A stretch of 64,000 nt of DNA from an uncultured Gammaproteobacteria bacterium (GTDB taxonomy: Bacteria; Patescibacteriota; Microgenomatia; Levybacterales; UBA12049). Shown in pieces: positions 3,932 to 47,065 of this stretch (positions are counted from its first letter, which is position 1; the number at the start of each line of letters is the position of its first letter). The notes beneath the pieces are model-generated. The model was not told the DNA's origin, made no database searches, and saw only the letters and a program-made list of their open reading frames with translations. Location: the NCBI GenBank assembly GCA_965230895.1, contig OZ246394.1:505316-569315 (forward strand). The letters run 5' to 3'. The position numbers were made by a program, and so were the translations under genes.

Positions 3932-5149
3932 GTGAAAATAGGAATATTTACTGACGCTTATCTGCCTCTCCCAAACGGTGTCGCCACAGCGGTCGATAGG
4001 ACTGCACGTGCTTTAGAAAAGCATGGACATGAAGTTACGATAGTTGCTCCCAATGTGCCAGGCTATCAAGATACAGACGATCATATCTACAGACTTCCTT
4101 CTGTTGGATTTTTAGCAACAGGTACAAGATTCGCGCTCCATGTGCCAAATAAAACCCTCCTGCAAATCGTGCAAAAAGAATTTGATGTTATTCATGCTTA
4201 CAATGGTGGTCCAATCAGTCTATTGGCCTGGGAATTGGCAAAAACAAAAAGAATTCCTTATGTCTTTAGTTATTGCACATTGCTTGTGCAATACAAGCAC
4301 TATCTAGGGAAATGGTTGGGCAATGAAGCATTTATGCGCATGCTTAGTCGTGTCATTTGTAATTATTGTGATTACCTTATCGTCCCGACTGAAGCAGTAA
4401 AGAGAGAATTAATAGAGTATGGAGTTGAAAAACCTATGCATGCTCATCCAACTGGAATCGAGCTTGACCTTTACCAATCAGGGAAAAAAGGGTTTATTCG
4501 AAAGAAGCTTGGATTGGGCAAACAAACAAAGATCCTCCTTCATGTCGGTCGATTAGGGAAAGAAAAAGCAATCGATTTTATTATTGATGCATTTGTCCAA
4601 ATTCAAAAGAAAACTCCAGATAGTGTTCTTGTACTTGTAGGTGAGGGTGCTGACAAAGACATTTTGCAGGAGCGAGTTGATCAGGTAGGATTGCATGATA
4701 AAGTTCATTTCCTCGGGGTTTTCTCTCCAGAAAAATTGCCTGATATTTATACAGATGCTGATATTTTTCTCTTTGCTTCACAAACGGAAACGCAAGGACT
4801 TGTAATTCTCGAAGCGCTTGCTTCATCACTTCCGATCGTCGCAGTCAAGGATAATGTGTTCGATGGGATTCTCGAAGATGGAAAGAACAGCTATCTAGTC
4901 AAAAAAGATAAGAACGTTTATGCAGATAAAGTGGTAAAGCTATTGCAGGATGAAAAACTCCGTAAAGAATTTGCAGAACAAAGTTTGAAATCTGCGCAAA
5001 AATTCTCAATTGAGAAGACTGCGATTGAACTCGAAACAATCTTCGAAGAGCTGATTCGTGAATTTGACCAAACGCCTTTAAGCTCTCGCAGAAAATACCT
5101 TTATAAATTCCACGGATTAATGAAGCCATTTTTATTGGTGAGGAAATAA
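3932..5149 (+). CDS. Glycosyltransferase family 4 (GT-B, group 1). GTG start.
   Basis: C-terminal ETQGLVILEALASSLPIVAV motif (E-x7-E). Overall GT4 architecture. Confidence 0.85.
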   Translation: MKIGIFTDAYLPLPNGVATAVDRTARALEKHGHEVTIVAPNVPGYQDTDDHIYRLPSVGFLATGTRFALHVPNKTLLQIVQKEFDVIHAYNGGPISLLAWELAKTKRIPYVFSYCTLLVQYKHYLGKWLGNEAFMRMLSRVICNYCDYLIVPTEAVKRELIEYGVEKPMHAHPTGIELDLYQSGKKGFIRKKLGLGKQTKILLHVGRLGKEKAIDFIIDAFVQIQKKTPDSVLVLVGEGADKDILQERVDQVGLHDKVHFLGVFSPEKLPDIYTDADIFLFASQTETQGLVILEALASSLPIVAVKDNVFDGILEDGKNSYLVKKDKNVYADKVVKLLQDEKLRKEFAEQSLKSAQKFSIEKTAIELETIFEELIREFDQTPLSSRRKYLYKFHGLMKPFLLVRK

Positions 5150-6366: not shown

Positions 6367-7512
6367 ATGGAAAAACCACGGCCAAGAGAATTAGCTTTTC
6401 ATAAAGAGACTTCAGGAAGGTCTGAATTTACCGTTTTAGATAAAGCTGCATATATTGATCAGCTCCACCAACTAATTCCTCAAGCGCAAAGACGCGTTTG
6501 GTTACAGACGATGACCTTTGATGGGAATGGTCCCTTTGTAGATCTTAAAAATCTTGTTGTAGATTCCGCTACAAGAGGTGTAGATACACGATACACTGTC
6601 GACGCATATCATAAGCTTCTTGTTGCTGGACGTCCATATTACCTTCCAGGCATTAAACCCTCTACTAAGCAAAAGCTGAGAGAAAAAACAGGTGAAAGAA
6701 AAGCTGCATTAGACGAATTTGAGCAGAATAATGTCTTAGTAACTGTTACCAATCCACCAAGCACACTGAAAGAACGAGTTAATCCTGCAAGAGGAAGAAA
6801 TCATATTAAGATGGCAATTATTGATGATGTCGCTTTTGTAGGAGATCTGCATAATTTTGTCAGTAAAGATCAACCTGGTATTATGATAAAAGTAACTGAT
6901 CCATTGCTGGTTAAAGGATTATCAGATGTCTTTACTTCGGCAGCAAAAGGCAGAGGAGGTTCAGATTATGAAATCACTGGGAGCAAGGATACAAAATTAC
7001 TCATTGATACGGGGGTAAACCATCAGTCTCTTATCTTGGACAGAGCTACAGCATTGGCTGATCAAGCAGAATCCTCGATACGTATGCACACACAACATAC
7101 TCCTGATGGTAAAGTCTTAGATGCTCTTCAAAAGGCTCAAGATCGTGGATTAGCTGTTTCAGTAGCAATTGCGGATCCTCAATTGGTGCTTAGACCTCTG
7201 TCAAGATTGTTTGACGCGAGATCACAATTGAAGTTGAAAAGAGCTGGTTATACATTCCCAATCTTAGAAATTTCCAGATGGGTACACTCCAATATTTTAC
7301 TTATTGATCAAGCATTGCCTTCTGCACAAGCAATTGTAGGTACACGATGTTTTTCTGATACGCTTGCAGATTGGGGAACCAATGAAGTTGCATTACAATC
7401 TGAAAATGCAGATTTACTTCAGCAATTAACAGCGCATACGCACAATGTAGAATCTTTAGGAACTCCACGAGATCATAATCGTACTGTAAAGCAAATTGTT
7501 TTTCGTCGGTAA
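6367..7512 (+). CDS. Phospholipase D superfamily protein (one canonical HKD motif, one degenerate)
   Basis: HIKMAIIDDVAFVGDLHN fits HxKx4Dx5-6G..N. Second motif HSNILLID is degenerate. Confidence 0.5.
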   Translation: MEKPRPRELAFHKETSGRSEFTVLDKAAYIDQLHQLIPQAQRRVWLQTMTFDGNGPFVDLKNLVVDSATRGVDTRYTVDAYHKLLVAGRPYYLPGIKPSTKQKLREKTGERKAALDEFEQNNVLVTVTNPPSTLKERVNPARGRNHIKMAIIDDVAFVGDLHNFVSKDQPGIMIKVTDPLLVKGLSDVFTSAAKGRGGSDYEITGSKDTKLLIDTGVNHQSLILDRATALADQAESSIRMHTQHTPDGKVLDALQKAQDRGLAVSVAIADPQLVLRPLSRLFDARSQLKLKRAGYTFPILEISRWVHSNILLIDQALPSAQAIVGTRCFSDTLADWGTNEVALQSENADLLQQLTAHTHNVESLGTPRDHNRTVKQIVFRR

Positions 7513-7529
7513 TCCCGTATAATTCATGT

Positions 7530-8339
7530 ATGGTAAAGATTGCTACATACAACATTCTCTTATCCAGGCATCCTGATGAAATCATAAAGAATATCACTTC
7601 AATGGCTCACGGAGGAGTTGCTATTTTTTGTTTACAGGAAGTTTTAGAGAGTGATGATAATCCTTTTATTATTGAAGAACTGCTTAGTCGCTTGGGTAAG
7701 GATTGGAAAGCAGCTTCCCATGTAGGTGATGGAAAATCATTTCTAGATTTTGGAACAAGTATCATTTGGAATAGTCGAGTTCTCCAACTTGAAAAAACAG
7801 AAAAGATACTGCTTCCTACAGCCAAAAGATTGACCTTTCCAGAATGGGCATTTCATAAACTTGCGGGACTACAAGCCGTGACACCTCCAAGAAGAGCAAT
7901 TAGTTGTTTGTTTAACTCTAATAATAAACAGCTATTAGTAACAAGTGTTCACCTTGATAGTGTTGGCGGAAAAGCTAATCGTTTGAAACAGTTACGCTAC
8001 CTCCTTAGAAAAGCTAATAACAATTATCATATTGTCTGTGGTGATTTTAATAGCTTTGATTTATTGAAAACTGGGCAAGAAGAGAAAAACATACAAAGAG
8101 TACTTGGCGCTACCTATGTTGATGCTACAAAGGATATTGCTTGGAGTGCAGATATTAATCGAATGGATACCCCTAAACATTTTCCATTTTTCATCATGCT
8201 TATTAAGAGCTTACAGATCCACATAAAAAGAAAGCTTGACTATATTTGGGTGAAAAATCTTAACGTGAAAAAATGTAAAGTGTTGGACGCAAAAGGATCA
8301 GATCATCTCCCCGTTATTGCGAATCTCGAATTAAATTAA
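7530..8339 (+). CDS. Endonuclease/exonuclease/phosphatase (EEP) family protein
   Basis: SVHLDS, IVCGDFNS and the C-terminal GSDHLPV catalytic motifs. Confidence 0.8.
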   Translation: MVKIATYNILLSRHPDEIIKNITSMAHGGVAIFCLQEVLESDDNPFIIEELLSRLGKDWKAASHVGDGKSFLDFGTSIIWNSRVLQLEKTEKILLPTAKRLTFPEWAFHKLAGLQAVTPPRRAISCLFNSNNKQLLVTSVHLDSVGGKANRLKQLRYLLRKANNNYHIVCGDFNSFDLLKTGQEEKNIQRVLGATYVDATKDIAWSADINRMDTPKHFPFFIMLIKSLQIHIKRKLDYIWVKNLNVKKCKVLDAKGSDHLPVIANLELN

Positions 8340-8376
8340 TCTTTCTTTCTGCATTTTGGTTAAGTAAAATTGTAGT

Positions 8377-8910
8377 ATGAAACTTATTCTTCTCTATGGA
8401 GCACCCGCTACAGGCAAGTATACAATCGCAACCAAACTTGCTCAAAAAACTGGATATTCCTTTTTGCACAACCATGCCATCCTTAACCCTTTGAGTGAAA
8501 TTTTTGGCTTTGATCATCCTGCTCGAAAGAGACTAGAGAAGGAATTTCGAGTAAGAATAGTTGAGGAAGCCGTTTCTGCAAATATAAACATTATTCTTAC
8601 GGGAGTAATTATGCGAGACAATGAGGGTTTCTATCGAAAATTACTACAAATCGTTGATGAGGCAAAGAATGAGCTATTTTTGGTGCATTTAACTGCTTCA
8701 CAAGATGAACTTCATAAGAGGATAACAAACGATTCAAGAAAGTCATTGAATAAGCTAGTCTCGCAAGAAAAATTAAAAGATTGGCTAGAAAAGTATCCTG
8801 AATCTTTAACAAAATTGGAGTATAAAAAACATTTGACAATTGATACAACGAAGATAGCACCTGATGATGTTGTAGAACAGATTTCAAAACTTTCAATCTT
8901 CACTGAATAG
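8377..8910 (+). CDS. P-loop kinase (AAA_33-like)
   Basis: Walker A GAPATGKYT at the N-terminus. About 175 aa. Confidence 0.65.
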   Translation: MKLILLYGAPATGKYTIATKLAQKTGYSFLHNHAILNPLSEIFGFDHPARKRLEKEFRVRIVEEAVSANINIILTGVIMRDNEGFYRKLLQIVDEAKNELFLVHLTASQDELHKRITNDSRKSLNKLVSQEKLKDWLEKYPESLTKLEYKKHLTIDTTKIAPDDVVEQISKLSIFTE

Positions 8911-8948
8911 TTACACAATAAGAACAAAAAAGCGGCTTCTAGAACTGA

Positions 8949-9458
8949 CTATTTAACATCTACACCAACATATTTGTATAATTTTTGCAGGTTTTCCTCA
9001 ATGGGTTCAACAGAATCAAGTAAAAGATGTGGATACGACCATTCTTCATAGATACCTTTTACTTTTTGTACCTCCTGCCAATCAGCTGGGGTCCATCCTT
9101 CAACCATTTCTGATCTGCTTTTTATTCGTTCTTCCCAGACCTTTTCCTCAGAGCACTTGCAGACAATGAAGTATATTTCAGCATGTGTTTTGCTAGCGAT
9201 TCCAGATATTTGTTCTCTAAGAGATTCTGTAGTAAACACAGCATCAAGAATAATCGAAACATTATTTTGGAGGTTTAGTTTACTTAATTCAAAGAAAACT
9301 TCATACCCAGCTTTACCGTTGAGCGTATCAATTCTTTCAAGACCACGGTCTATGGCATCTTTCGTAATGAGCGCCCATCCGGTTTGTTGAGCCAATCTAT
9401 AACTGAGTGTGCTTTTACCAACACCAGGAGGACCACTAAAAATAACAATCTTAGCCAT
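8949..9458 (-). CDS. P-loop kinase (AAA_33-like), second paralog
   Basis: Walker A GPPGVGKST at the N-terminus. Confidence 0.65.
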   Translation of the reverse strand: MAKIVIFSGPPGVGKSTLSYRLAQQTGWALITKDAIDRGLERIDTLNGKAGYEVFFELSKLNLQNNVSIILDAVFTTESLREQISGIASKTHAEIYFIVCKCSEEKVWEERIKSRSEMVEGWTPADWQEVQKVKGIYEEWSYPHLLLDSVEPIEENLQKLYKYVGVDVK

Positions 9459-9708: not shown

Positions 9709-10404
9709 ATGGCTAGACATGAACAAGAGCACACACAAAGAAGAGCGCCTGATGGAAGAGCTTTTTTTGACTCAACAAAAACTAGGGTTGGATTAGAATT
9801 TGCACGAGGGGAGCGTTTTCCATCACCTTACTCAAAAATAGTCCCTAACACAGAAGCGATTAGTAGAGCGGCAGAATGGAGAGCGGGAGGAGAGAGAGTT
9901 GTGATGGTAGACTCTGTTGTAGATATCCCTCATTATCGACATGCAGACTATTTTAGAGCATGTGCAAACTTAGGCAATAGATTAATTGTAAGAGTTGAAG
10001 CTGATGAATTAGTTAAAACCCGTAAAGATCCACGCGGACCTATTGTCCCTTTTGAGGCTCGAGCTTTACACGTAGCACATTATCCATATATTGATGTAGT
10101 TACTGATCAAGTAGTTCATGGTTTAGATTTTCTTGAGGACTTTCAACCAGATGTTCTTGTAAAGTCTGTTACAAGTGGACCACTGATTATCCAACAAATA
10201 GATGAACTCAGTGCACATAGAGAAAGGTATCCAATGGATGTGGTAGTTATGGATCAATTTGCAAATATTGTCGATCCATCAACAGCATATGAAGAAGGTA
10301 CTGCCTACGATGCAGATAAATATGGTTCTGATAAATTATCTGGATCAACAATTAAACAGGAAATTACAAGACGTGTACTTGAAGATCACAGACCAACAAA
10401 CTAG
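9709..10404 (+). CDS. Cytidylyltransferase-like (CTP_transf_like, TagD/RfaE-II fold) protein with a divergent HxGH motif
   Basis: Aligns along TagD/RfaE domain II: VVMVDSVVDIPHYRH ... LGNRLIVRVEADELV ... RGPIVPFEAR ... PDVLVKS. The canonical HxGH is replaced by HYRH. Confidence 0.6.
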   Translation: MARHEQEHTQRRAPDGRAFFDSTKTRVGLEFARGERFPSPYSKIVPNTEAISRAAEWRAGGERVVMVDSVVDIPHYRHADYFRACANLGNRLIVRVEADELVKTRKDPRGPIVPFEARALHVAHYPYIDVVTDQVVHGLDFLEDFQPDVLVKSVTSGPLIIQQIDELSAHRERYPMDVVVMDQFANIVDPSTAYEEGTAYDADKYGSDKLSGSTIKQEITRRVLEDHRPTN

Positions 10405-10413
10405 AATATAAAT

Positions 10414-10830
10414 ATGGATTTTATTCCTCAATCAAAGCAACCTAAAACCTGGGAAGAATTACAAAGTCTTACTGAATATATGTCAGACTGCGACCCACGT
10501 GAATTAAGACTAAAAGAAGATACTCAGTTTTATGATCTATATAAGGAGTTAGTGCCGAGAGAGATTGCTTTAGAGATTATTAAAAGGCAAATTGGAAATA
10601 ATTCTATTGCACTTATTAATAACAATTTTCCATATACAAGGACTTTAGAGTTACTTCCAAAGGTAAAGCATTATTGTTTGTGGTCATTAACGGGTCCACT
10701 GAATGAGGACACTATTAAAGAAGTAGTAGGCTCAAAGTTTCCAAAAAAAGATTGGTGTAAATCAGAGAGAAAACTCAATTTTAAATCCGTCCCTGAAATG
10801 TGGCATTGTCATATATTTGTTAAGAACTAA
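10414..10830 (+). CDS. Hypothetical protein
   Basis: ORF only. Co-directional with and immediately downstream of the cytidylyltransferase-like gene. Confidence 0.4.
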   Translation: MDFIPQSKQPKTWEELQSLTEYMSDCDPRELRLKEDTQFYDLYKELVPREIALEIIKRQIGNNSIALINNNFPYTRTLELLPKVKHYCLWSLTGPLNEDTIKEVVGSKFPKKDWCKSERKLNFKSVPEMWHCHIFVKN

Positions 10831-11978
10831 TATATGCTTGTAAGCATATTTTTTACTTGCTCTGCACTTATAACTACAGGAGTATTAGCTGCTCTGTTAG
10901 TATAAAAACTTTCCTTAACTATTAAGTCTATACCTGACTTAATTATTCCTAATTCTGACAATTTTGTCTTTAAGCCAATTTCTTTAATTAATCTTTTTAT
11001 TAATTCTTCAGCCTCATTATGTGCAGTAACATTTAGAGCTTTTAATAAATCGTGCTCAATTCTTGGAGAAAGCTTAGGAAGAAATAATTTCAGGAATGAT
11101 GGCATTGTTAATGCTACTGCTTGGCCGTGTTGTATATTCCAATGTGCAGTTATCGGATAAGATACCGCATGACAAATAGTTGTTTGAGTATTTGAAAAAG
11201 CCAAACCACTATATAATGAACCTAAAGCCATATTATCTCTTACAAGAACATTGGGAGAATGTACAGCATTGGAAATACTATTAATAATAAGCTCAATAGC
11301 TTTTAAAGAATATCTTCTTGTTACACTATTACTATTTATATTCCAATATGATTCTATTGCTTGGCATAGGGCGTCAATTCCTGATGTAGCTGAGATGGAC
11401 GGGCTTAAATCATCAGTAAGCGAAGGATCTATTATTGCATAGTCAGGAAACATGTATTCGGAAGTAAGTGAGTATTTCTTCTTATCATCACCCCATACAG
11501 TAGCCCATGGTGTCACTTCACTCCCTGTACCTGATGTTGTTGGAACAGCAATTAGTTGTAATCCTTTATGTGTCAGTTGTCTAGATTTGTTTTTAATATA
11601 ATCTTCTAATAATCCATCATGCTCTGCTAATATACATGCAGATTTTACTACATCTATGATTTTGCCACCTCCAATTGCTATCACTGAATCAAACTTATTC
11701 TTTCTTAAATATTTGGCAAGTTCATCAATAGTTTTATTGTTAGATTTTAGGATTTTCCCTGTATACAAAGTAAAACTAATTGCTCTTTTTAGTTGATCAA
11801 ATTTAGCTGTAGTTTTAAAATGCTCTCCACAAACAATTAAAATTGAAGTATCATTTGAAGTGATTTTATTTAACCTTTCTTCTAAGATATCTCTGCCATA
11901 GTATACTTTCACTGGCATAAAGTAATTCTTAGTTTTTTTAGGAGGAATATACATGTTACCTAAATTTTTCAATTTCAT
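10827..11978 (-). CDS. Iron-containing (group III) alcohol dehydrogenase. Candidate phosphonoacetaldehyde reductase (FomC/PhpC-like).
   Basis: Fe-ADH motifs IGGGKIIDVVK and VPTTSGTGSEVTPWA. Overlaps the ppd stop, so it is in the same operon. Confidence 0.75.
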   Translation of the reverse strand: MKLKNLGNMYIPPKKTKNYFMPVKVYYGRDILEERLNKITSNDTSILIVCGEHFKTTAKFDQLKRAISFTLYTGKILKSNNKTIDELAKYLRKNKFDSVIAIGGGKIIDVVKSACILAEHDGLLEDYIKNKSRQLTHKGLQLIAVPTTSGTGSEVTPWATVWGDDKKKYSLTSEYMFPDYAIIDPSLTDDLSPSISATSGIDALCQAIESYWNINSNSVTRRYSLKAIELIINSISNAVHSPNVLVRDNMALGSLYSGLAFSNTQTTICHAVSYPITAHWNIQHGQAVALTMPSFLKLFLPKLSPRIEHDLLKALNVTAHNEAEELIKRLIKEIGLKTKLSELGIIKSGIDLIVKESFYTNRAANTPVVISAEQVKNMLTSIY

Positions 11979-13062
11979 TCATAAACAATTCTTTTACTTC
12001 AGGCGCAGAGTATTTTTCTGAGACACGCATAGATTTATGTGTAGTATTAAAGTTTATTTTAATATGTAGAAACACACTTTTATTTTTAGCTTCTTGTATT
12101 TTAGTTAATGCTGTTTGAAGCTGGTCTTTAGTTTTTACAAGTTCAATTATTTCAAATCCAAATGCTTTTGCTAATAAAGCAAAATTAACCTTTTTTGAAA
12201 CGGTTGGCTGGCAACCTGTACTCTCACACACCTCATTATCTAAAACAATATAAACTAAGTTTTTGTGCTTGTATGGATCAAATGATCCCATACCACCTAA
12301 ATGCATGAGAGATGACGCATCTCCATCCAAAATAATGGTTCTTTCCTTAGTATTTTCAGCGACACCTAATCCAAGGGCTAAAGTATGCCCCATAGATCCC
12401 ATCATATAAAAATCTTTTGTAGGATTCACAGTAAAAGAATCTCTTGAAGGAAATCCTGTTGATGAAATAAATAAAGAATTAGATGCTAACTGCTCTTTTA
12501 TTTTTTGAACAACTTCATATCTATCCATTTCATATCCATTATCCATTGGTTCTAATTTATATTCATCAAAAGTGTTTTTCTTTACAATTAATGCCACTGG
12601 CTTATTCGTTTTTCTAGCTTTAGTAGCCAACCTTTCAATTTGTTCTGAGTATAACTGATCATCTATAATTTCATATGGTATTTGGAATGTGTCCATAATT
12701 TTTTCTAAATTTTCTCCAACGACATCGTGCTCAGGAGCATCTGCACCTACGCCACCTTCACCTCTCCAAGTGACAACATAAAAAACTGGTATTTGATAAA
12801 TCTGATTCAATGAGGTTAACGCATTCAAGGTATTCATTAAGCCTGAATTTTGCATCATGACAATGGGTAGCTTTCCTGTACTCAAATAATGACCAGATGC
12901 TATTCCCATAGCAAGTCCTTCGTTAACAGGATTGATAACATTCATAGAATTAGTCGCTATGATGTAGTTGAGCAAGTTCTTAAAGTAAGAACAAGGAACT
13001 TGAACGAGTGGTCCCAAGTTATTCTTAATTAATGCATTTGTGAAATCTTTTGGTTTAATCAT
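11956..13062 (-). CDS. ppd: Phosphonopyruvate decarboxylase (thiamine-diphosphate dependent)
   Basis: TPP-binding ILDGDASSLMHLGGMGS ... VLDNE. About 370 aa. Directly follows pepM. Confidence 0.75.
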   Translation of the reverse strand: MIKPKDFTNALIKNNLGPLVQVPCSYFKNLLNYIIATNSMNVINPVNEGLAMGIASGHYLSTGKLPIVMMQNSGLMNTLNALTSLNQIYQIPVFYVVTWRGEGGVGADAPEHDVVGENLEKIMDTFQIPYEIIDDQLYSEQIERLATKARKTNKPVALIVKKNTFDEYKLEPMDNGYEMDRYEVVQKIKEQLASNSLFISSTGFPSRDSFTVNPTKDFYMMGSMGHTLALGLGVAENTKERTIILDGDASSLMHLGGMGSFDPYKHKNLVYIVLDNEVCESTGCQPTVSKKVNFALLAKAFGFEIIELVKTKDQLQTALTKIQEAKNKSVFLHIKINFNTTHKSMRVSEKYSAPEVKELFMNEIEKFR

Positions 13063-13899
13063 TTATGTACCCTCTTTATCTCTACTAACAGTTTCAAGCA
13101 TTCCTACTGTCTCAAATAATGTGCTTATTTCTACACATTTTTCTTCAGCTTCTGTTGATCTATCATTCAATAATATACTTTTACATACTTCTTCCATGGC
13201 CTTATATGCTGATCTCAAAAGATGATTTGCATAGATGATAATATTGAATCCTTCTTTCGCTAATTCTGATGCAGTAATCGCATTGTAAGTTGTAGGAACA
13301 CATACTAATACCTTTCCTCTTGTTAAACTTTCAGGAAGTAATTTATATTGTCTTGCAAACTCAATAATTTCATCTGGTGCTTTCGACTTAGAATGAATCA
13401 TTATGCCATCTGCACCCGCCTTTAAAAATGCCTCAGCGCGTGCTATAGCATCTTTGACTGTTTCACCTGAGATTAAACTTTCAAGTCTAGCTACAATCAT
13501 AAAATCATCGCTCTGTTTTGCTTCAATACCTCTTTTTATTTTTCTTGAAAATACTTCAATGCTTTCTAGATTTTGATTTGTTTCCGCAAAACTATTTCTT
13601 TTAGGAAAGACTTTATCTTCGATAATTACCATAGATGCTCCAGCACGCTCCAATCTACGTACTAAGTATTCGAAGTGATTAATATCTCCTCCACTGTCAC
13701 CATCCACAATCATTGGCTTCGTAGTTACATCTAAGATTTGATGAATTGTATGAAGTCTCGAATCAGAGCTAACAAGTTCTATATCTGGCAATCCTTTCGA
13801 AGCAGAATCTGTCAAGCTGCTCTCCCAGAATCCATCAAAAGAATATTCTGCTGAGTTTTTAGTAATACTAATATTAGCAATATAAATTAGAAAAAACAA
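13063..13899 (-). CDS. pepM: Phosphoenolpyruvate phosphomutase (PEP mutase)
   Basis: Diagnostic EDKxxxxxNS motif (IIEDKVFPKRNSF). Extended colinear similarity to known PepM (GFWESSLTDSAS, MIVARLESL, AGADGIMIHSK, IIIYANHLLRS). Confidence 0.9.
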   Translation of the reverse strand: MFFLIYIANISITKNSAEYSFDGFWESSLTDSASKGLPDIELVSSDSRLHTIHQILDVTTKPMIVDGDSGGDINHFEYLVRRLERAGASMVIIEDKVFPKRNSFAETNQNLESIEVFSRKIKRGIEAKQSDDFMIVARLESLISGETVKDAIARAEAFLKAGADGIMIHSKSKAPDEIIEFARQYKLLPESLTRGKVLVCVPTTYNAITASELAKEGFNIIIYANHLLRSAYKAMEEVCKSILLNDRSTEAEEKCVEISTLFETVGMLETVSRDKEGT

Positions 13900-14087
13900 T
13901 AACTAATATATTTTATTAATACATAAATCTATTTTAAAAACACCTGAAGAAGCTTGACTTTAGATTTACTTAAAAAAATTATATGCTTTAGTGAAGTTAA
14001 GAGTAAAAAGTTTAGTTTAGTTTAGCTTGTTCGATCGACCCACACTTTAGATTGATATGACTTGCTAAATTGATTGAGGCAAAATCT

Positions 14088-14163
14088 TGGGGTGGCTGAC
14101 GGGAATCGGACCCGCGACATTCAGTACCACAAACTGACGCTCTACCCCTGAGCTACAGCCACC
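14088..14163 (-). tRNA. tRNA-His (GTG) with encoded G-1 and encoded CCA
   Basis: Cloverleaf folded by hand. Acceptor GTGGCTG/CAGCCAC, D-arm GCTC-AGGGGTA-GAGC, anticodon arm TCAGT-TTGTGGT-ACTGA, discriminator C, 5' extra G pairing with C73. Confidence 0.85.
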
Positions 14164-14164
14164 A

Positions 14165-14410
14165 TTATTTGAAGAGTTCGTTTCTAATTTCTCTTCCGAC
14201 ACCACTTTTAAAGTATTTTTCTAATTCTCTCGCTTCTGCTCTACTTTGAACTATCTCTACATGAACTAATATAAATGGTCCTCTATGCAAGGTTGATGGT
14301 GTTGAATGAGTTCCTTGATTGTGCTGATCCATTCTTCTACCGATATCATTAGTGATACCTGTGTAGAATTTACCATCTTTTACGCTCTTAATTATATAGC
14401 AGAAATACAT
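14165..14410 (-). CDS. Mini GIY-YIG nuclease-domain protein (81 aa), paralog 1
   Basis: YFCYII...GKFYTGIT...RRMDQH matches the GIY-x10-YIG N-terminal motif. Abuts tRNA-His. Confidence 0.8.
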   Translation of the reverse strand: MYFCYIIKSVKDGKFYTGITNDIGRRMDQHNQGTHSTPSTLHRGPFILVHVEIVQSRAEARELEKYFKSGVGREIRNELFK

Positions 14411-14414
14411 AGAT

Positions 14415-14458
14415 CTCTACCCCTGACCTGCCTGCCGTCAGGCAGGGCTACAGCCACC
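14415..14458 (-). repeat. Duplicated copy of tRNA-His nt -1..23 interrupted by a perfect 8-bp/4-nt-loop hairpin. It is a direct repeat of 14140..14163.
   Basis: ctctacccctga + cctgcctgccgtcaggcagg + gctacagccacc. The outer 24 nt are identical to the 5' part of the adjacent tRNA-His gene. Confidence 0.85.
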
Positions 14459-14526
14459 ATTTGTATAGATAAGTATACCAATTTTTGAATTAAGTTTAAA
14501 GTACCAACTTATAGTATAATACTAGC

Positions 14527-19855: not shown

Positions 19856-20143
19856 TTAAAGAATCTTCTTATATAAATCTTCCCACTCAGGATTCACGTT
19901 TTCTATTAATATTACTTTCTTTTTTCGCGATCCTGATTTTAATTGTTTTTCTCTAAGAATTGCTTCTTCTATTTCCTGATATTGTTCGTAATAAACTAGT
20001 TTATTGACATTATATTTTTGAGTAAATCCTTTTGTTGTCTTATGTTTATGTTGGTATACACGCTTTAGAAGATCACTACAAACTCCAATATAGAGTGTTG
20101 TATTCCATTCGTTGGTCAATATATAAATATATGAATACTTCAT
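19856..20143 (-). CDS. Mini GIY-YIG nuclease-domain protein (95 aa), paralog 2
   Basis: YSYIYILTNEWNTTLYIGVCSDLLKRVYQH GIY-YIG motif. Flanked by inverted repeats. Confidence 0.8.
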   Translation of the reverse strand: MKYSYIYILTNEWNTTLYIGVCSDLLKRVYQHKHKTTKGFTQKYNVNKLVYYEQYQEIEEAILREKQLKSGSRKKKVILIENVNPEWEDLYKKIL

Positions 20144-45189: not shown

Positions 45190-45777
45190 TTAGTAGCTTT
45201 TATCAGGTTTTTGAATGTTTTTAATTTTAAGCTCTTTTGGTAGGAATCTGTCAATTTCTTCATCAGACCATGTGAAATCTTCGTTTTGGACAACACCCTT
45301 TTCATTTAATCTTTTTTGTGCTTCTTCGTATTCTTCTCTTCCTGTTTGAGGGGCTAAGTCACAAAGTATTTGGTATTCTCTCAATAAATCGTCACGTTTA
45401 TTAATAATTTCTCTGTCAGAGATACTTTCATTGATAATATCTGTTATTAAAGAAGTATAAGCATTTCTCAGACCGAGATACTTTAGTGCTGAATTTTTAT
45501 AGAGAATGGTTTTATCTTCAAACTTAAAAGACAGTTGAAAAATTAAAAAAATAATTTCTATAACAGAAAGACTAATACCTAAATATCCAAAAATTGGATT
45601 AACAGTCGAAACTGAAAGGACCAAAGTTATTAATACGAGAGAAACCAATACTACGTTTCCTATCTTAACTTTAAAGGCTTTTTTATCCTGAAATTCGGCA
45701 GCAACCTCCTGTACTTTATGAGTAAAAACGGTATTCGCAAAATTCTGTCTTACAATTGATAAATTTTTGATGTCCAT
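45190..45777 (-). CDS. 2TM effector-like protein (SLATT-like architecture)
   Basis: 40-aa cytoplasmic head, two adjacent TM helices (VVLVSLVLITLVLSV / LGISLSVIEIIFLIFQL), about 110-aa helical tail. The ATG is 1 nt after the NTase stop (TAAtATG). Confidence 0.6.
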   Translation of the reverse strand: MDIKNLSIVRQNFANTVFTHKVQEVAAEFQDKKAFKVKIGNVVLVSLVLITLVLSVSTVNPIFGYLGISLSVIEIIFLIFQLSFKFEDKTILYKNSALKYLGLRNAYTSLITDIINESISDREIINKRDDLLREYQILCDLAPQTGREEYEEAQKRLNEKGVVQNEDFTWSDEEIDRFLPKELKIKNIQKPDKSY

Positions 45778-45778
45778 A

Positions 45779-47065
45779 TTATATGGTTCCGATTGGAACA
45801 AATACTCTAGAAAATGCAACGCAAACTCCGTCTTTTATAGCATAACACTCCACATAATGCTCACCCCAATATTTTGTACTCTCAATTTTCTCTTCTTTTC
45901 CCCTATCCGAAGTAATCTCTCCTCTAAGATCACCAGCATTTTGAGCTTCTTCTCCAAAATTTCTCACTTTCCATTTTATCGAATATGGATAAGGAACTGT
46001 ATTTTTAGTTATATGAAATGTTAAGCTTTTCTGCTTTCTCAATAACAGTTTATTAAGAATAATTTCCCCTAGAGATTTTCTTCTAAACCCATTTTGATCC
46101 ACATGTGCATCAATTTTAAAATCAAATCCTGGATTAAGACGAAATGGTTCCTCAAGAAATTCTTCTTTCTCTGACGGATATGATTCCTGAAGCTCTACTA
46201 AGGTCTGATCAAAAGATTTTTCTGATTTTTCTAGCGATGGAAAAGTATCACCGAATATTTTTTTCCATTCAGATACAGCATCTTCAAGTTTATCGTCTTC
46301 CTCAAGCTGCAATGCTTTTTCTGCTCGATTTTTAGCTGTTTCTATATGACTTTTTCTATTTACATTCTGGTTCACATTTATAAAATAAGCAAAAAATTGT
46401 GTGACAAGCGTAGAATAATCACTTTCTGCAGAATAAATAGTGAAGAAGCCTACAACAGCATCTTCTATTTCGTAAGATTTTATACTTATGGAACAGTTTT
46501 CTGTCCATTTCTTGACGATTCTTATCAAAGCTTTCGTTTTTCCTGTTTGGGCATCTGATTCTTTTATTTTCTTTATTTCTGATCTTGGATCCCATTCATC
46601 CCAAGCTCCTCCATTTGCTGTATTTGGGATTAAAAAAGTTCCCTCTACTGCTTCGTTCTCCCATGCAGGTAAAAGCTCAATGTTGTGTGTACCATCTGAA
46701 AACTTGATTAAAACTATCTTTCCCCAAGCTTTTATTATTTCTGTTGTTGTATATTTCTTAGAAAGGATATTTTTTATATCTTGCAAGAGTTGTGATTGCC
46801 CGTTGGATTCATTGTCATCATATTGTTTAAACTTATCTCCGGGCATTATAAATAGAACGTCAACATCTCTAGGAGGTCGAAGATGAGTATGTTTGCCATA
46901 TGATCCAATTAATAATTTTGTGCTACCATCATAATCTTTATTTGGATAATAGTGACTGTGAAGTTTTTTACAAACTCCTACATACTTAGATTTAGCATCT
47001 TTTCTCTGTGCAGAGGTAAGCAAGATGTTTTTATAAAATTTTTCAAAGCATCTTTGAATATTCAT
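45779..47065 (-). CDS. cGAS/DncV-like nucleotidyltransferase (CD-NTase / SMODS-like) with C-terminal extension
   Basis: Pol-beta NTase core LLIGSYGKHTHLRPPRDVDVLFIMP (GS...DhD) and downstream NIELLPAW (hDhhPA-like with Glu). Start overlaps the upstream HTH gene stop (TAATG). Confidence 0.65.
   Translation of the reverse strand: MNIQRCFEKFYKNILLTSAQRKDAKSKYVGVCKKLHSHYYPNKDYDGSTKLLIGSYGKHTHLRPPRDVDVLFIMPGDKFKQYDDNESNGQSQLLQDIKNILSKKYTTTEIIKAWGKIVLIKFSDGTHNIELLPAWENEAVEGTFLIPNTANGGAWDEWDPRSEIKKIKESDAQTGKTKALIRIVKKWTENCSISIKSYEIEDAVVGFFTIYSAESDYSTLVTQFFAYFINVNQNVNRKSHIETAKNRAEKALQLEEDDKLEDAVSEWKKIFGDTFPSLEKSEKSFDQTLVELQESYPSEKEEFLEEPFRLNPGFDFKIDAHVDQNGFRRKSLGEIILNKLLLRKQKSLTFHITKNTVPYPYSIKWKVRNFGEEAQNAGDLRGEITSDRGKEEKIESTKYWGEHYVECYAIKDGVCVAFSRVFVPIGTI

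Follow-up and report, generated by a model that had tools for sequence, protein, structure and literature searches.

A 2-hydroxyethylphosphonate operon with a shortened PEP mutase gene, tail to tail with a nucleotidyltransferase/HIT-like gene pair in a Microgenomatia bacterium

We analysed a 64,000-nt stretch of DNA (hereafter the window; contig OZ246394.1 of assembly GCA_965230895.1, positions 505,316 to 569,315) from an uncultured bacterium that GTDB places in the Microgenomatia, and studied the region at 9709-13899. This region holds five open reading frames (ORFs). Three lie on the minus strand and encode a phosphoenolpyruvate (PEP) mutase (PepM), a thiamine diphosphate (TPP)-dependent phosphonopyruvate decarboxylase (Ppd) and an iron-dependent alcohol dehydrogenase (Fe-ADH), which is the gene set for 2-hydroxyethylphosphonate (HEP). 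The other two lie on the plus strand and encode a 231-aa nucleotidyltransferase and a 138-aa histidine triad (HIT)-like protein. On balance, we favour the view that these are two separate units placed tail to tail, namely an HEP operon whose first gene is damaged and an independent transferase/HIT-like pair. PepM lacks an N-terminal segment that its relatives possess, and the transferase is mostly found away from phosphonate genes.

Results

The HEP operon

The three minus-strand genes belong to families of the HEP pathway. PepM scores 175 bits against PF13714 and passes the equivalog cut-off of NCBIfam TIGR02320 (326.6 bits, cut-off 319.55), with a match that begins at model position 28 of 284. 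Ppd, a single chain carrying both PF02776 (TPP_enzyme_N) and PF02775 (TPP_enzyme_C), passes TIGR03297 (316.5 bits, cut-off 312.5) and shares 54-65% identity with its counterparts in related loci. The top NCBIfam family for Fe-ADH is TIGR03405 (Phn_Fe-ADH), at 229 bits and under the cut-off of 423.7, followed by 4-hydroxybutyrate dehydrogenase at 171 bits, and its position directly after pepM-ppd is kept in four related loci (L004, L008, L016 and L017). Fe-ADH comprises 383 aa; with the ATG at 11954, the start chosen by gene callers, it has 375 aa. The genes are contiguous or overlapping, as ppd starts at the very next base after the pepM stop codon and overlaps Fe-ADH. Upstream of ppd, inside the operon, stands AAGAGGG.

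In such an operon, PepM would isomerise PEP to phosphonopyruvate, Ppd would decarboxylate this to phosphonoacetaldehyde and thereby pull the unfavourable PepM equilibrium, and Fe-ADH would reduce the aldehyde to HEP. A preliminary description of this DNA, made from the letters alone, had proposed this canonical gene set, which our analysis supports. The ORF coordinates that it gave for the three genes and for the 231-aa protein are also correct, and the gene calls are right. It had further reported an EDKxxxxxNS motif in PepM and no Fom3-, Fom4- or HppE-like tailoring genes. Both statements hold: Pfam context tables and tblastn located none of these tailoring genes across the whole window, and the motif is present (E94-D95-K96...N102-S103). 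On careful alignment of ten sequences (the window PepM and nine relatives of 299-333 aa), D39, D66, D68, E94, K100, N102, S103, R138 and H169 are present and invariant. We take these to be D58, D85, D87, E114, K120, N122, S123, R159 and H190 of the Mytilus enzyme.

The PepM N-terminus

At 278 aa, PepM is shorter than its nearest relatives (311-326 aa, 61-76% identity) by about 35-37 residues, which is a larger deficit than the 15-20 aa of the preliminary description. In the ten-sequence alignment, the absent segment reads 'RVxLLKKLIxxKGFVRIIEVHNGLSG' and includes positions (R, E, H, G, S) that at least 90% of the aligned sequences share. The protein again matches its relatives from about ORF residue 5-9 onwards. 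With the closest relative, the DNA and protein sequences become homologous at about window position 13875-13887, and the first aligned residue of the solved structures is 36 in Mytilus 1m1b and 50 in 5unc. Among the best 120 PepM homologues, the shortest has 292 aa and none is as short as the window protein. The TTG start codon sits directly after an in-frame TAG. An identical 278-aa product is encoded on contigs of three independent sequencing runs and on a 1.61-Mb NCBI contig, and the short form is therefore not an assembly error.

The 188-nt spacer upstream of the ORF contains no remnant of the lost codons detectable by blastn, tblastn or global alignment against shuffled sequences. A weak colinear peptide likeness at 13900-14090 ('KSKVKLLQVFLK', 'VFKIDLCINK') was considered as a decayed pepM 5′ end and rejected as not demonstrable, with tblastn E values of 0.2-1.4 and DNA alignments to three relatives at z = -0.6 to 0.8 versus shuffles. 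Read-through of the TAG ahead of the TTG was likewise set aside: the window uses TAG as the stop in 13 of 54 ORFs and lacks a tRNA-CUA, and reading through would not bring back the missing motif.

From what is known of the superfamily, the roughly 35 residues ahead of the W-x-S-G-L loop presumably form the N-terminal helix, barrel strand 1 and the start of helix 1. Strand 1 ('..RIIEVHNGLS..'), which a complete (beta/alpha)8 barrel requires, is missing from the window protein. We envisage that a deletion or replacement took the first ~37 pepM codons, including the strand with EVHNG and its two flanking helical elements. Because the barrel is incomplete, the step that forms the C-P bond is probably lost or badly impaired here, as judged from the alignment. 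The event was probably recent, since the operon is otherwise undamaged. The thought, raised beforehand, that the operon could be a pseudogene remnant is partly right: pepM is without its first barrel strand, but its catalytic residues, its core and the rest of the operon are intact. The locus is largely ordinary, and the operon is possibly dead in this genome.

The nucleotidyltransferase and its HIT-like partner

The 231-aa protein passes PF01467 with 28.3 bits (cut-off 21). Its motif, H75-Y76-R77-H78, keeps both histidines of HxGH and has arginine in place of glycine, departing from the (H/T)xGH signature. The surrounding DIPHYRHA is retained in nine of ten family members, with TYRH in the other, and this conservation across the family marks HYRH as a variant of HxGH kept by selection. 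A second conserved stretch, D208-K-L-S-G-S-T-I-K216, resembles an ISSTxxR or RTxGISTT-type motif, although it lies after an insertion. The family is small: a set of 5.8 billion proteins yields about 10 members, the GTDB representatives a single locus, and a collection of 1.84 billion proteins about 15 representatives at E <= 1e-30.

Searched against the PDB, the family profile matches ECT (3.8e-24, 89 bits), HldC (3.1e-22, 82 bits), TagD (1e-9) and CCT (3e-6), and it reaches the cytidylyltransferase (CyTase) domain of Fom1 (5x3d) at E = 5e-4 and 23 bits. With an AlphaFold2 (AF2) model (pLDDT 77), Foldseek places HldC at the top and also returns PPAT, pantothenate synthetase and TagD; 5x3d is absent from the top 50. 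Among NCBIfam families, models of HldE domain II score best, with about 50 bits (TIGR02199), far below the cut-off of 181.5. The Pfam score, the model and the structural matches agree with the earlier assignment as a nucleotidyltransferase with HYRH, and the predicted structure places the protein among the HIGH-type nucleotidyltransferases, in the Pfam family of the Fom1 CyTase but not close to it. One relative, P0263 (404 aa), is a fusion of an HYRH family member to a class I S-adenosylmethionine-dependent methyltransferase domain. Fusion partners were examined as a functional clue and discarded, as there is this one methyltransferase fusion and none with PepM or the HIT-like protein.

The HIT-like gene follows on the same strand after a gap of 10 nt. 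Its product has the HTC1 fold; it scores 16.6 bits against PF12239, below the cut-off of 23.6, and many homologues at 40-50% identity carry PF12239. H86, H131 and H133 are invariant in the five closest sequences, and only H131 is invariant in 41. A search of the available literature on DUF3605 found nothing. The HIT-like stop codon overlaps that of Fe-ADH by 4 nt in convergent orientation. The preliminary description had called the transferase convergent to the operon, which is correct as to the opposite strand, but the gene that actually converges with Fe-ADH is this 138-aa ORF, which it did not mention.

Comparison of related loci

We compared eight distinct loci that carry the transferase (the window, L008, L009, L010, L011, L020, L021 and L022). 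The HTC-like gene directly follows the transferase in seven of them. PepM, Ppd and Fe-ADH occur within the sequenced flanks of two, the window and its closest relative L008, and the transferase is neither fused to pepM nor consistently beside it across the family. Elsewhere the pair stands beside genes for HflX, a KH/S1 protein, an AAA protein, NusB, RNase III, RecG or a histidine phosphatase, and L009 has the transferase without its partner, within a defence island. Seen from the other side, the transferase pair accompanies two of seven distinct PepM-clade loci, again the window and L008. The latter has the same five-gene layout with a full-length PepM of 313 aa.

The other PepM-clade loci carry different genes. 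In L004 and L017, the next gene after the HEP operon encodes a match to methylphosphonate synthase (MPnS; 6b9s, 5e-91) and to the dioxygenase HEPD (6b9r, 8e-68). The L004 dioxygenase has Leu at MPnS F162 and Gly at MPnS I184, both MPnS-diagnostic positions, and by these residues it is not a canonical MPnS. Tailoring genes in L006 encode TauD, a methyltransferase and an aldehyde dehydrogenase, the neighbours in L016 encode NUDIX and APH proteins, and in L018 a PfkB protein. The HEP cassette circulates in Microgenomates-type bacteria of the candidate phyla radiation (CPR), and its tailoring genes vary. The preliminary description considered phosphonate genes unusual for such a lineage, yet they are not unique: about 27 PepM proteins at 60% identity or more are among the matches listed, the closest named one being from Candidatus Daviesbacteria. 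Several of these lie on contigs of the same kind, and PepM is already annotated in metagenome-assembled genomes of CPR bacteria such as Daviesbacteria. Our search of the available literature for PepM in CPR bacteria found no paper. In our analysis, the assignment to the Microgenomates comes from named homologues only (Daviesbacteria, Shapirobacteria, Woesebacteria).

Three further observations concern these loci. The L004 HEP cluster is carried by a conjugative element, which has relaxase, type IV secretion system and recombinase genes. In L008, a tRNA with a CUA (amber-reading) anticodon is located at 966-1040, just upstream of pepM. In L016, Fe-ADH has an in-frame TAG at 4805-4807 where homologues have Glu. 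The last two could reflect amber suppression in some lineages, or the L016 gene could simply be a pseudogene.

Table 1. Features of the studied region and of two related HEP loci (window positions unless a locus is named)
Feature	Position	Strand	Remarks
PF01467 HIGH-superfamily nucleotidyltransferase	9709-10404	+	231 aa; HYRH at 75-78; C-terminal DKLSGSTIK
HIT-like protein, HTC1/DUF3605 kind	10414-10830	+	138 aa; second gene of the transferase unit
Group III Fe-dependent alcohol dehydrogenase, probable phosphonoacetaldehyde reductase	10827-11978	-	PF00465 and PF25137
ppd, TPP-dependent phosphonopyruvate decarboxylase	11956-13062	-	368 aa, full length; TIGR03297
pepM, PEP mutase, 5′-truncated	13063-13899	-	278 aa; TTG start; PF13714 and TIGR02320
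AT-rich spacer	13900-14087	-	188 nt, replacing the 5′ part of pepM and its native upstream sequence; without similarity to relatives' 5′ ends
tRNA-His (GTG)	14088-14162	-	3′ end towards truncated pepM; block edge
HEPD/MPnS-like dioxygenase	L004 13214-14635; L017 11268-12683

Surroundings in the window

We considered whether the operon is part of an integrative island at the tRNA-His gene and rejected this idea, as the tRNA 3′ end has no att-like copy elsewhere in the window and the GC content at third codon positions of the operon is not distinct from that of its neighbours. On the far side of the tRNA, an 81-aa GIY-YIG ORF (14165-14410, minus strand) stands between the tRNA gene and a partial duplicate of the tRNA 5′ end. 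The duplicate pieces at 14447-14461 and 14415-14429 match 14152-14166 and 14140-14154, respectively, with a GC-rich hairpin between them. The stretch at 14165-14461 looks like a small mobile GIY-YIG insertion beside the tRNA, and a second GIY-YIG gene is found at 19856-20143.

Ahead of the transferase, positions 6367-9458 encode a PLD-like protein with two PLDc_2 stretches, an endonuclease/exonuclease/phosphatase-family protein and two small AAA_33/KTI12-like P-loop kinases. These genes, together with GT4 and DAGK genes, were considered as candidate phosphonate transferases and dismissed, since no related pepM or transferase locus contains any of them. Further away lies a CBASS-like pair of an SMODS/AGS_C nucleotidyltransferase (45779-47065, minus strand) and an SLATT_4 effector (45190-45819, minus strand), which adjoins a Peptidase_S24 repressor gene and ParB/N6_N4 methyltransferase genes. 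At eight genes (3932, 5695, 6271, 6367, 7530, 9458, 9709 and 14527), a TATAAT box stands 6-12 nt ahead of the start codon without a Shine-Dalgarno sequence, which suggests that leaderless or near-leaderless mRNAs are widespread in the window.

Discussion

Our reading of the region as two separate units, with PepM impaired, must be set against several observations that weigh the other way. The five-gene block is kept between the window and L008 (76, 65, 56, 71 and 69% identity), although the short flanks available for L008 share nothing with the 64-kb window, and this makes the block look like a co-inherited functional one. The flanks of the loci with the pair alone span 0.6-10 kb, and pepM could lie elsewhere in those genomes. 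In addition, PF01467 enzymes are common PepM partners, with a published enrichment near PepM (PMC6697681). These points speak for the model of the preliminary description, a split Fom1/Fom2/FomC in which all five genes form one system, the stand-alone transferase converts HEP to CMP-HEP and the phosphonate is passed on to a glycan or lipid, with the HIT-like protein possibly handling the nucleotidyl intermediate. The nucleotidyltransferase fold with its conserved variant active-site motif fits this model as well, and 5x3d is detectable as a distant superfamily relative. However, six of the eight transferase loci have no PepM, Ppd or ADH in their sequenced flanks and show housekeeping contexts, and no PepM-clade locus beyond the window and L008 has the transferase. 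The transferase is also much nearer to ECT and HldC than to the Fom1 CyTase, so that its closest characterised relatives are not phosphonate-acting. Moreover, the window holds no transferase gene of the LicD or CDP-alcohol phosphotransferase type, and PepM is truncated in this genome. We regard a single five-gene system in this sublineage as unlikely, if still worth keeping in mind. A more daring variant is that the HYRH transferase and the HTC1-type HIT protein are an undescribed two-enzyme module that this lineage has recruited to the HEP operon. The transferase would make a nucleoside monophosphate-HEP conjugate, and the HIT-like protein, by way of a histidine-nucleotidyl or phosphonyl intermediate, would hand the phosphonate to an acceptor on the cell surface. 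We give this variant little credence; if true, it would imply a phosphonate-decorated CPR envelope and a first biochemical role for HTC/DUF3605.

The contrary evidence extends to PepM itself. Its core is without decay and as conserved as in its relatives, with two conservative private substitutions in 71 strongly conserved columns (median 1 in relatives). The spacer contains promoter-like hexamers at 14007-13978 and 13938-13910, and the second site, TTTAAA-17-TAAAAT, ends 10 nt ahead of the TTG, a suitable distance that resembles the 6-12 nt between TATAAT boxes and many other start codons of the window. The shortened PepM might accordingly be functional and the operon make HEP, if the N-terminal strand is not needed or the new MFFLIY... 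leader stands in for it; translation would then begin at the TTG on a near-leaderless transcript. The catalytic and loop residues are all kept (W25, S27, S28 and L29 in addition to the nine listed above), Ppd and ADH are intact, and the 278-aa allele is fixed in three samples. Against this, all aligned homologues keep the strand-1 'IIEVHNG' segment and no homologue among the best 120 is as short. Furthermore, enzymes of the isocitrate lyase/PEP mutase superfamily do not normally fold once a core barrel strand is missing, and TTG is a weak initiator. We consider a functional short PepM to be rather unlikely. It is also conceivable that Ppd and ADH act on a non-phosphonate substrate, for example from sulfopyruvate through sulfoacetaldehyde to isethionate, which would make PepM irrelevant. 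Secondary NCBIfam matches to sulfopyruvate decarboxylase alpha and beta (99 and 118 bits) and to sulfoacetaldehyde reductase (153 bits) point in this direction. Yet Ppd passes the equivalog cut-off for phosphonopyruvate decarboxylase, the best ADH family is the phosphonate one, and the pepM-ppd-adh order is kept in five related loci, which leaves a sulfonate pathway barely credible.

We thus return to two units, an HEP operon with a damaged pepM and a transferase/HIT-like pair of its own. The pair is found in most genomes among housekeeping genes with no phosphonate genes nearby, and for this reason the substrate of the transferase is most likely something other than HEP, as far as gene context can tell. 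It would be another phosphorylated metabolite, by closest homology (HldC, ECT, TagD) a sugar-1-phosphate or a phospho-alcohol, and the HIT-like partner may act on the nucleotide-linked product of the transferase.

The HEP pathway and the idea of nucleotidyl activation are already known, and what we describe is a known pathway in a new host lineage, a pathway that was likely inactivated recently. Were the operon active, it would mean that ultra-small CPR bacteria invest in C-P compounds, which bears on phosphorus cycling and on the surface decoration of epibionts. The locus also has cautionary value, as a top-scoring PepM with a perfect catalytic motif nevertheless lacks a structural strand, and a suggestive neighbouring cytidylyltransferase appears to belong to another conserved unit. 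Two by-products may outweigh the original claim. One is a small, CPR-restricted and uncharacterised nucleotidyltransferase/HIT-like gene pair; the other is the presence of HEPD/MPnS-type dioxygenases in related Microgenomates HEP operons, one of them on a conjugative element.

Comparison with known systems

The early steps of HEP-derived pathways, as in Fom1/Fom2/FomC, the PhpC-type reductases and the Nitrosopumilus methylphosphonate cluster, use PepM, Ppd and a phosphonoacetaldehyde reductase, and the window has the same three families in the same gene order. It differs from these systems in a PepM without ~37 N-terminal residues, including barrel strand 1, in the lack of a Fom3/Fom4/HppE or HEPD/MPnS tailoring enzyme, and in its CPR-type host.

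The transferase shares its Pfam family (PF01467) and fold class with the N-terminal CyTase of Fom1, a HEP cytidylyltransferase (PDB 5x3d), and its gene adjoins the pepM operon in the window and L008. In contrast to the Fom1 domain, it is unfused to PepM and carries HYRH instead of HxGH, besides occurring mostly apart from phosphonate genes; it is also longer by ~40 N-terminal and ~60 C-terminal residues. Its best structural match is HldC/HldE domain II (5x9q, 5xf2; Foldseek E = 3e-9), the D-glycero-beta-D-manno-heptose-1-phosphate adenylyltransferase. Unlike HldC, the transferase has arginine for the central glycine of HxGH, and no heptose pathway genes lie nearby. PntC, a LicC-like enzyme, offers an analogous logic, the nucleotidyl activation of a phosphonate for cell-surface tailoring. 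However, PntC belongs to fold family PF12804 rather than PF01467 and acts on 2-aminoethylphosphonate, and the window region has no aminotransferase. Finally, the HIT-like protein has 138 aa compared with the 184 aa of HTC1 (YPL067C, 'histidine triad with channel', DUF3605, PDB 5kci), and differs from it in being bacterial, from a CPR host, and in being paired with a nucleotidyltransferase.

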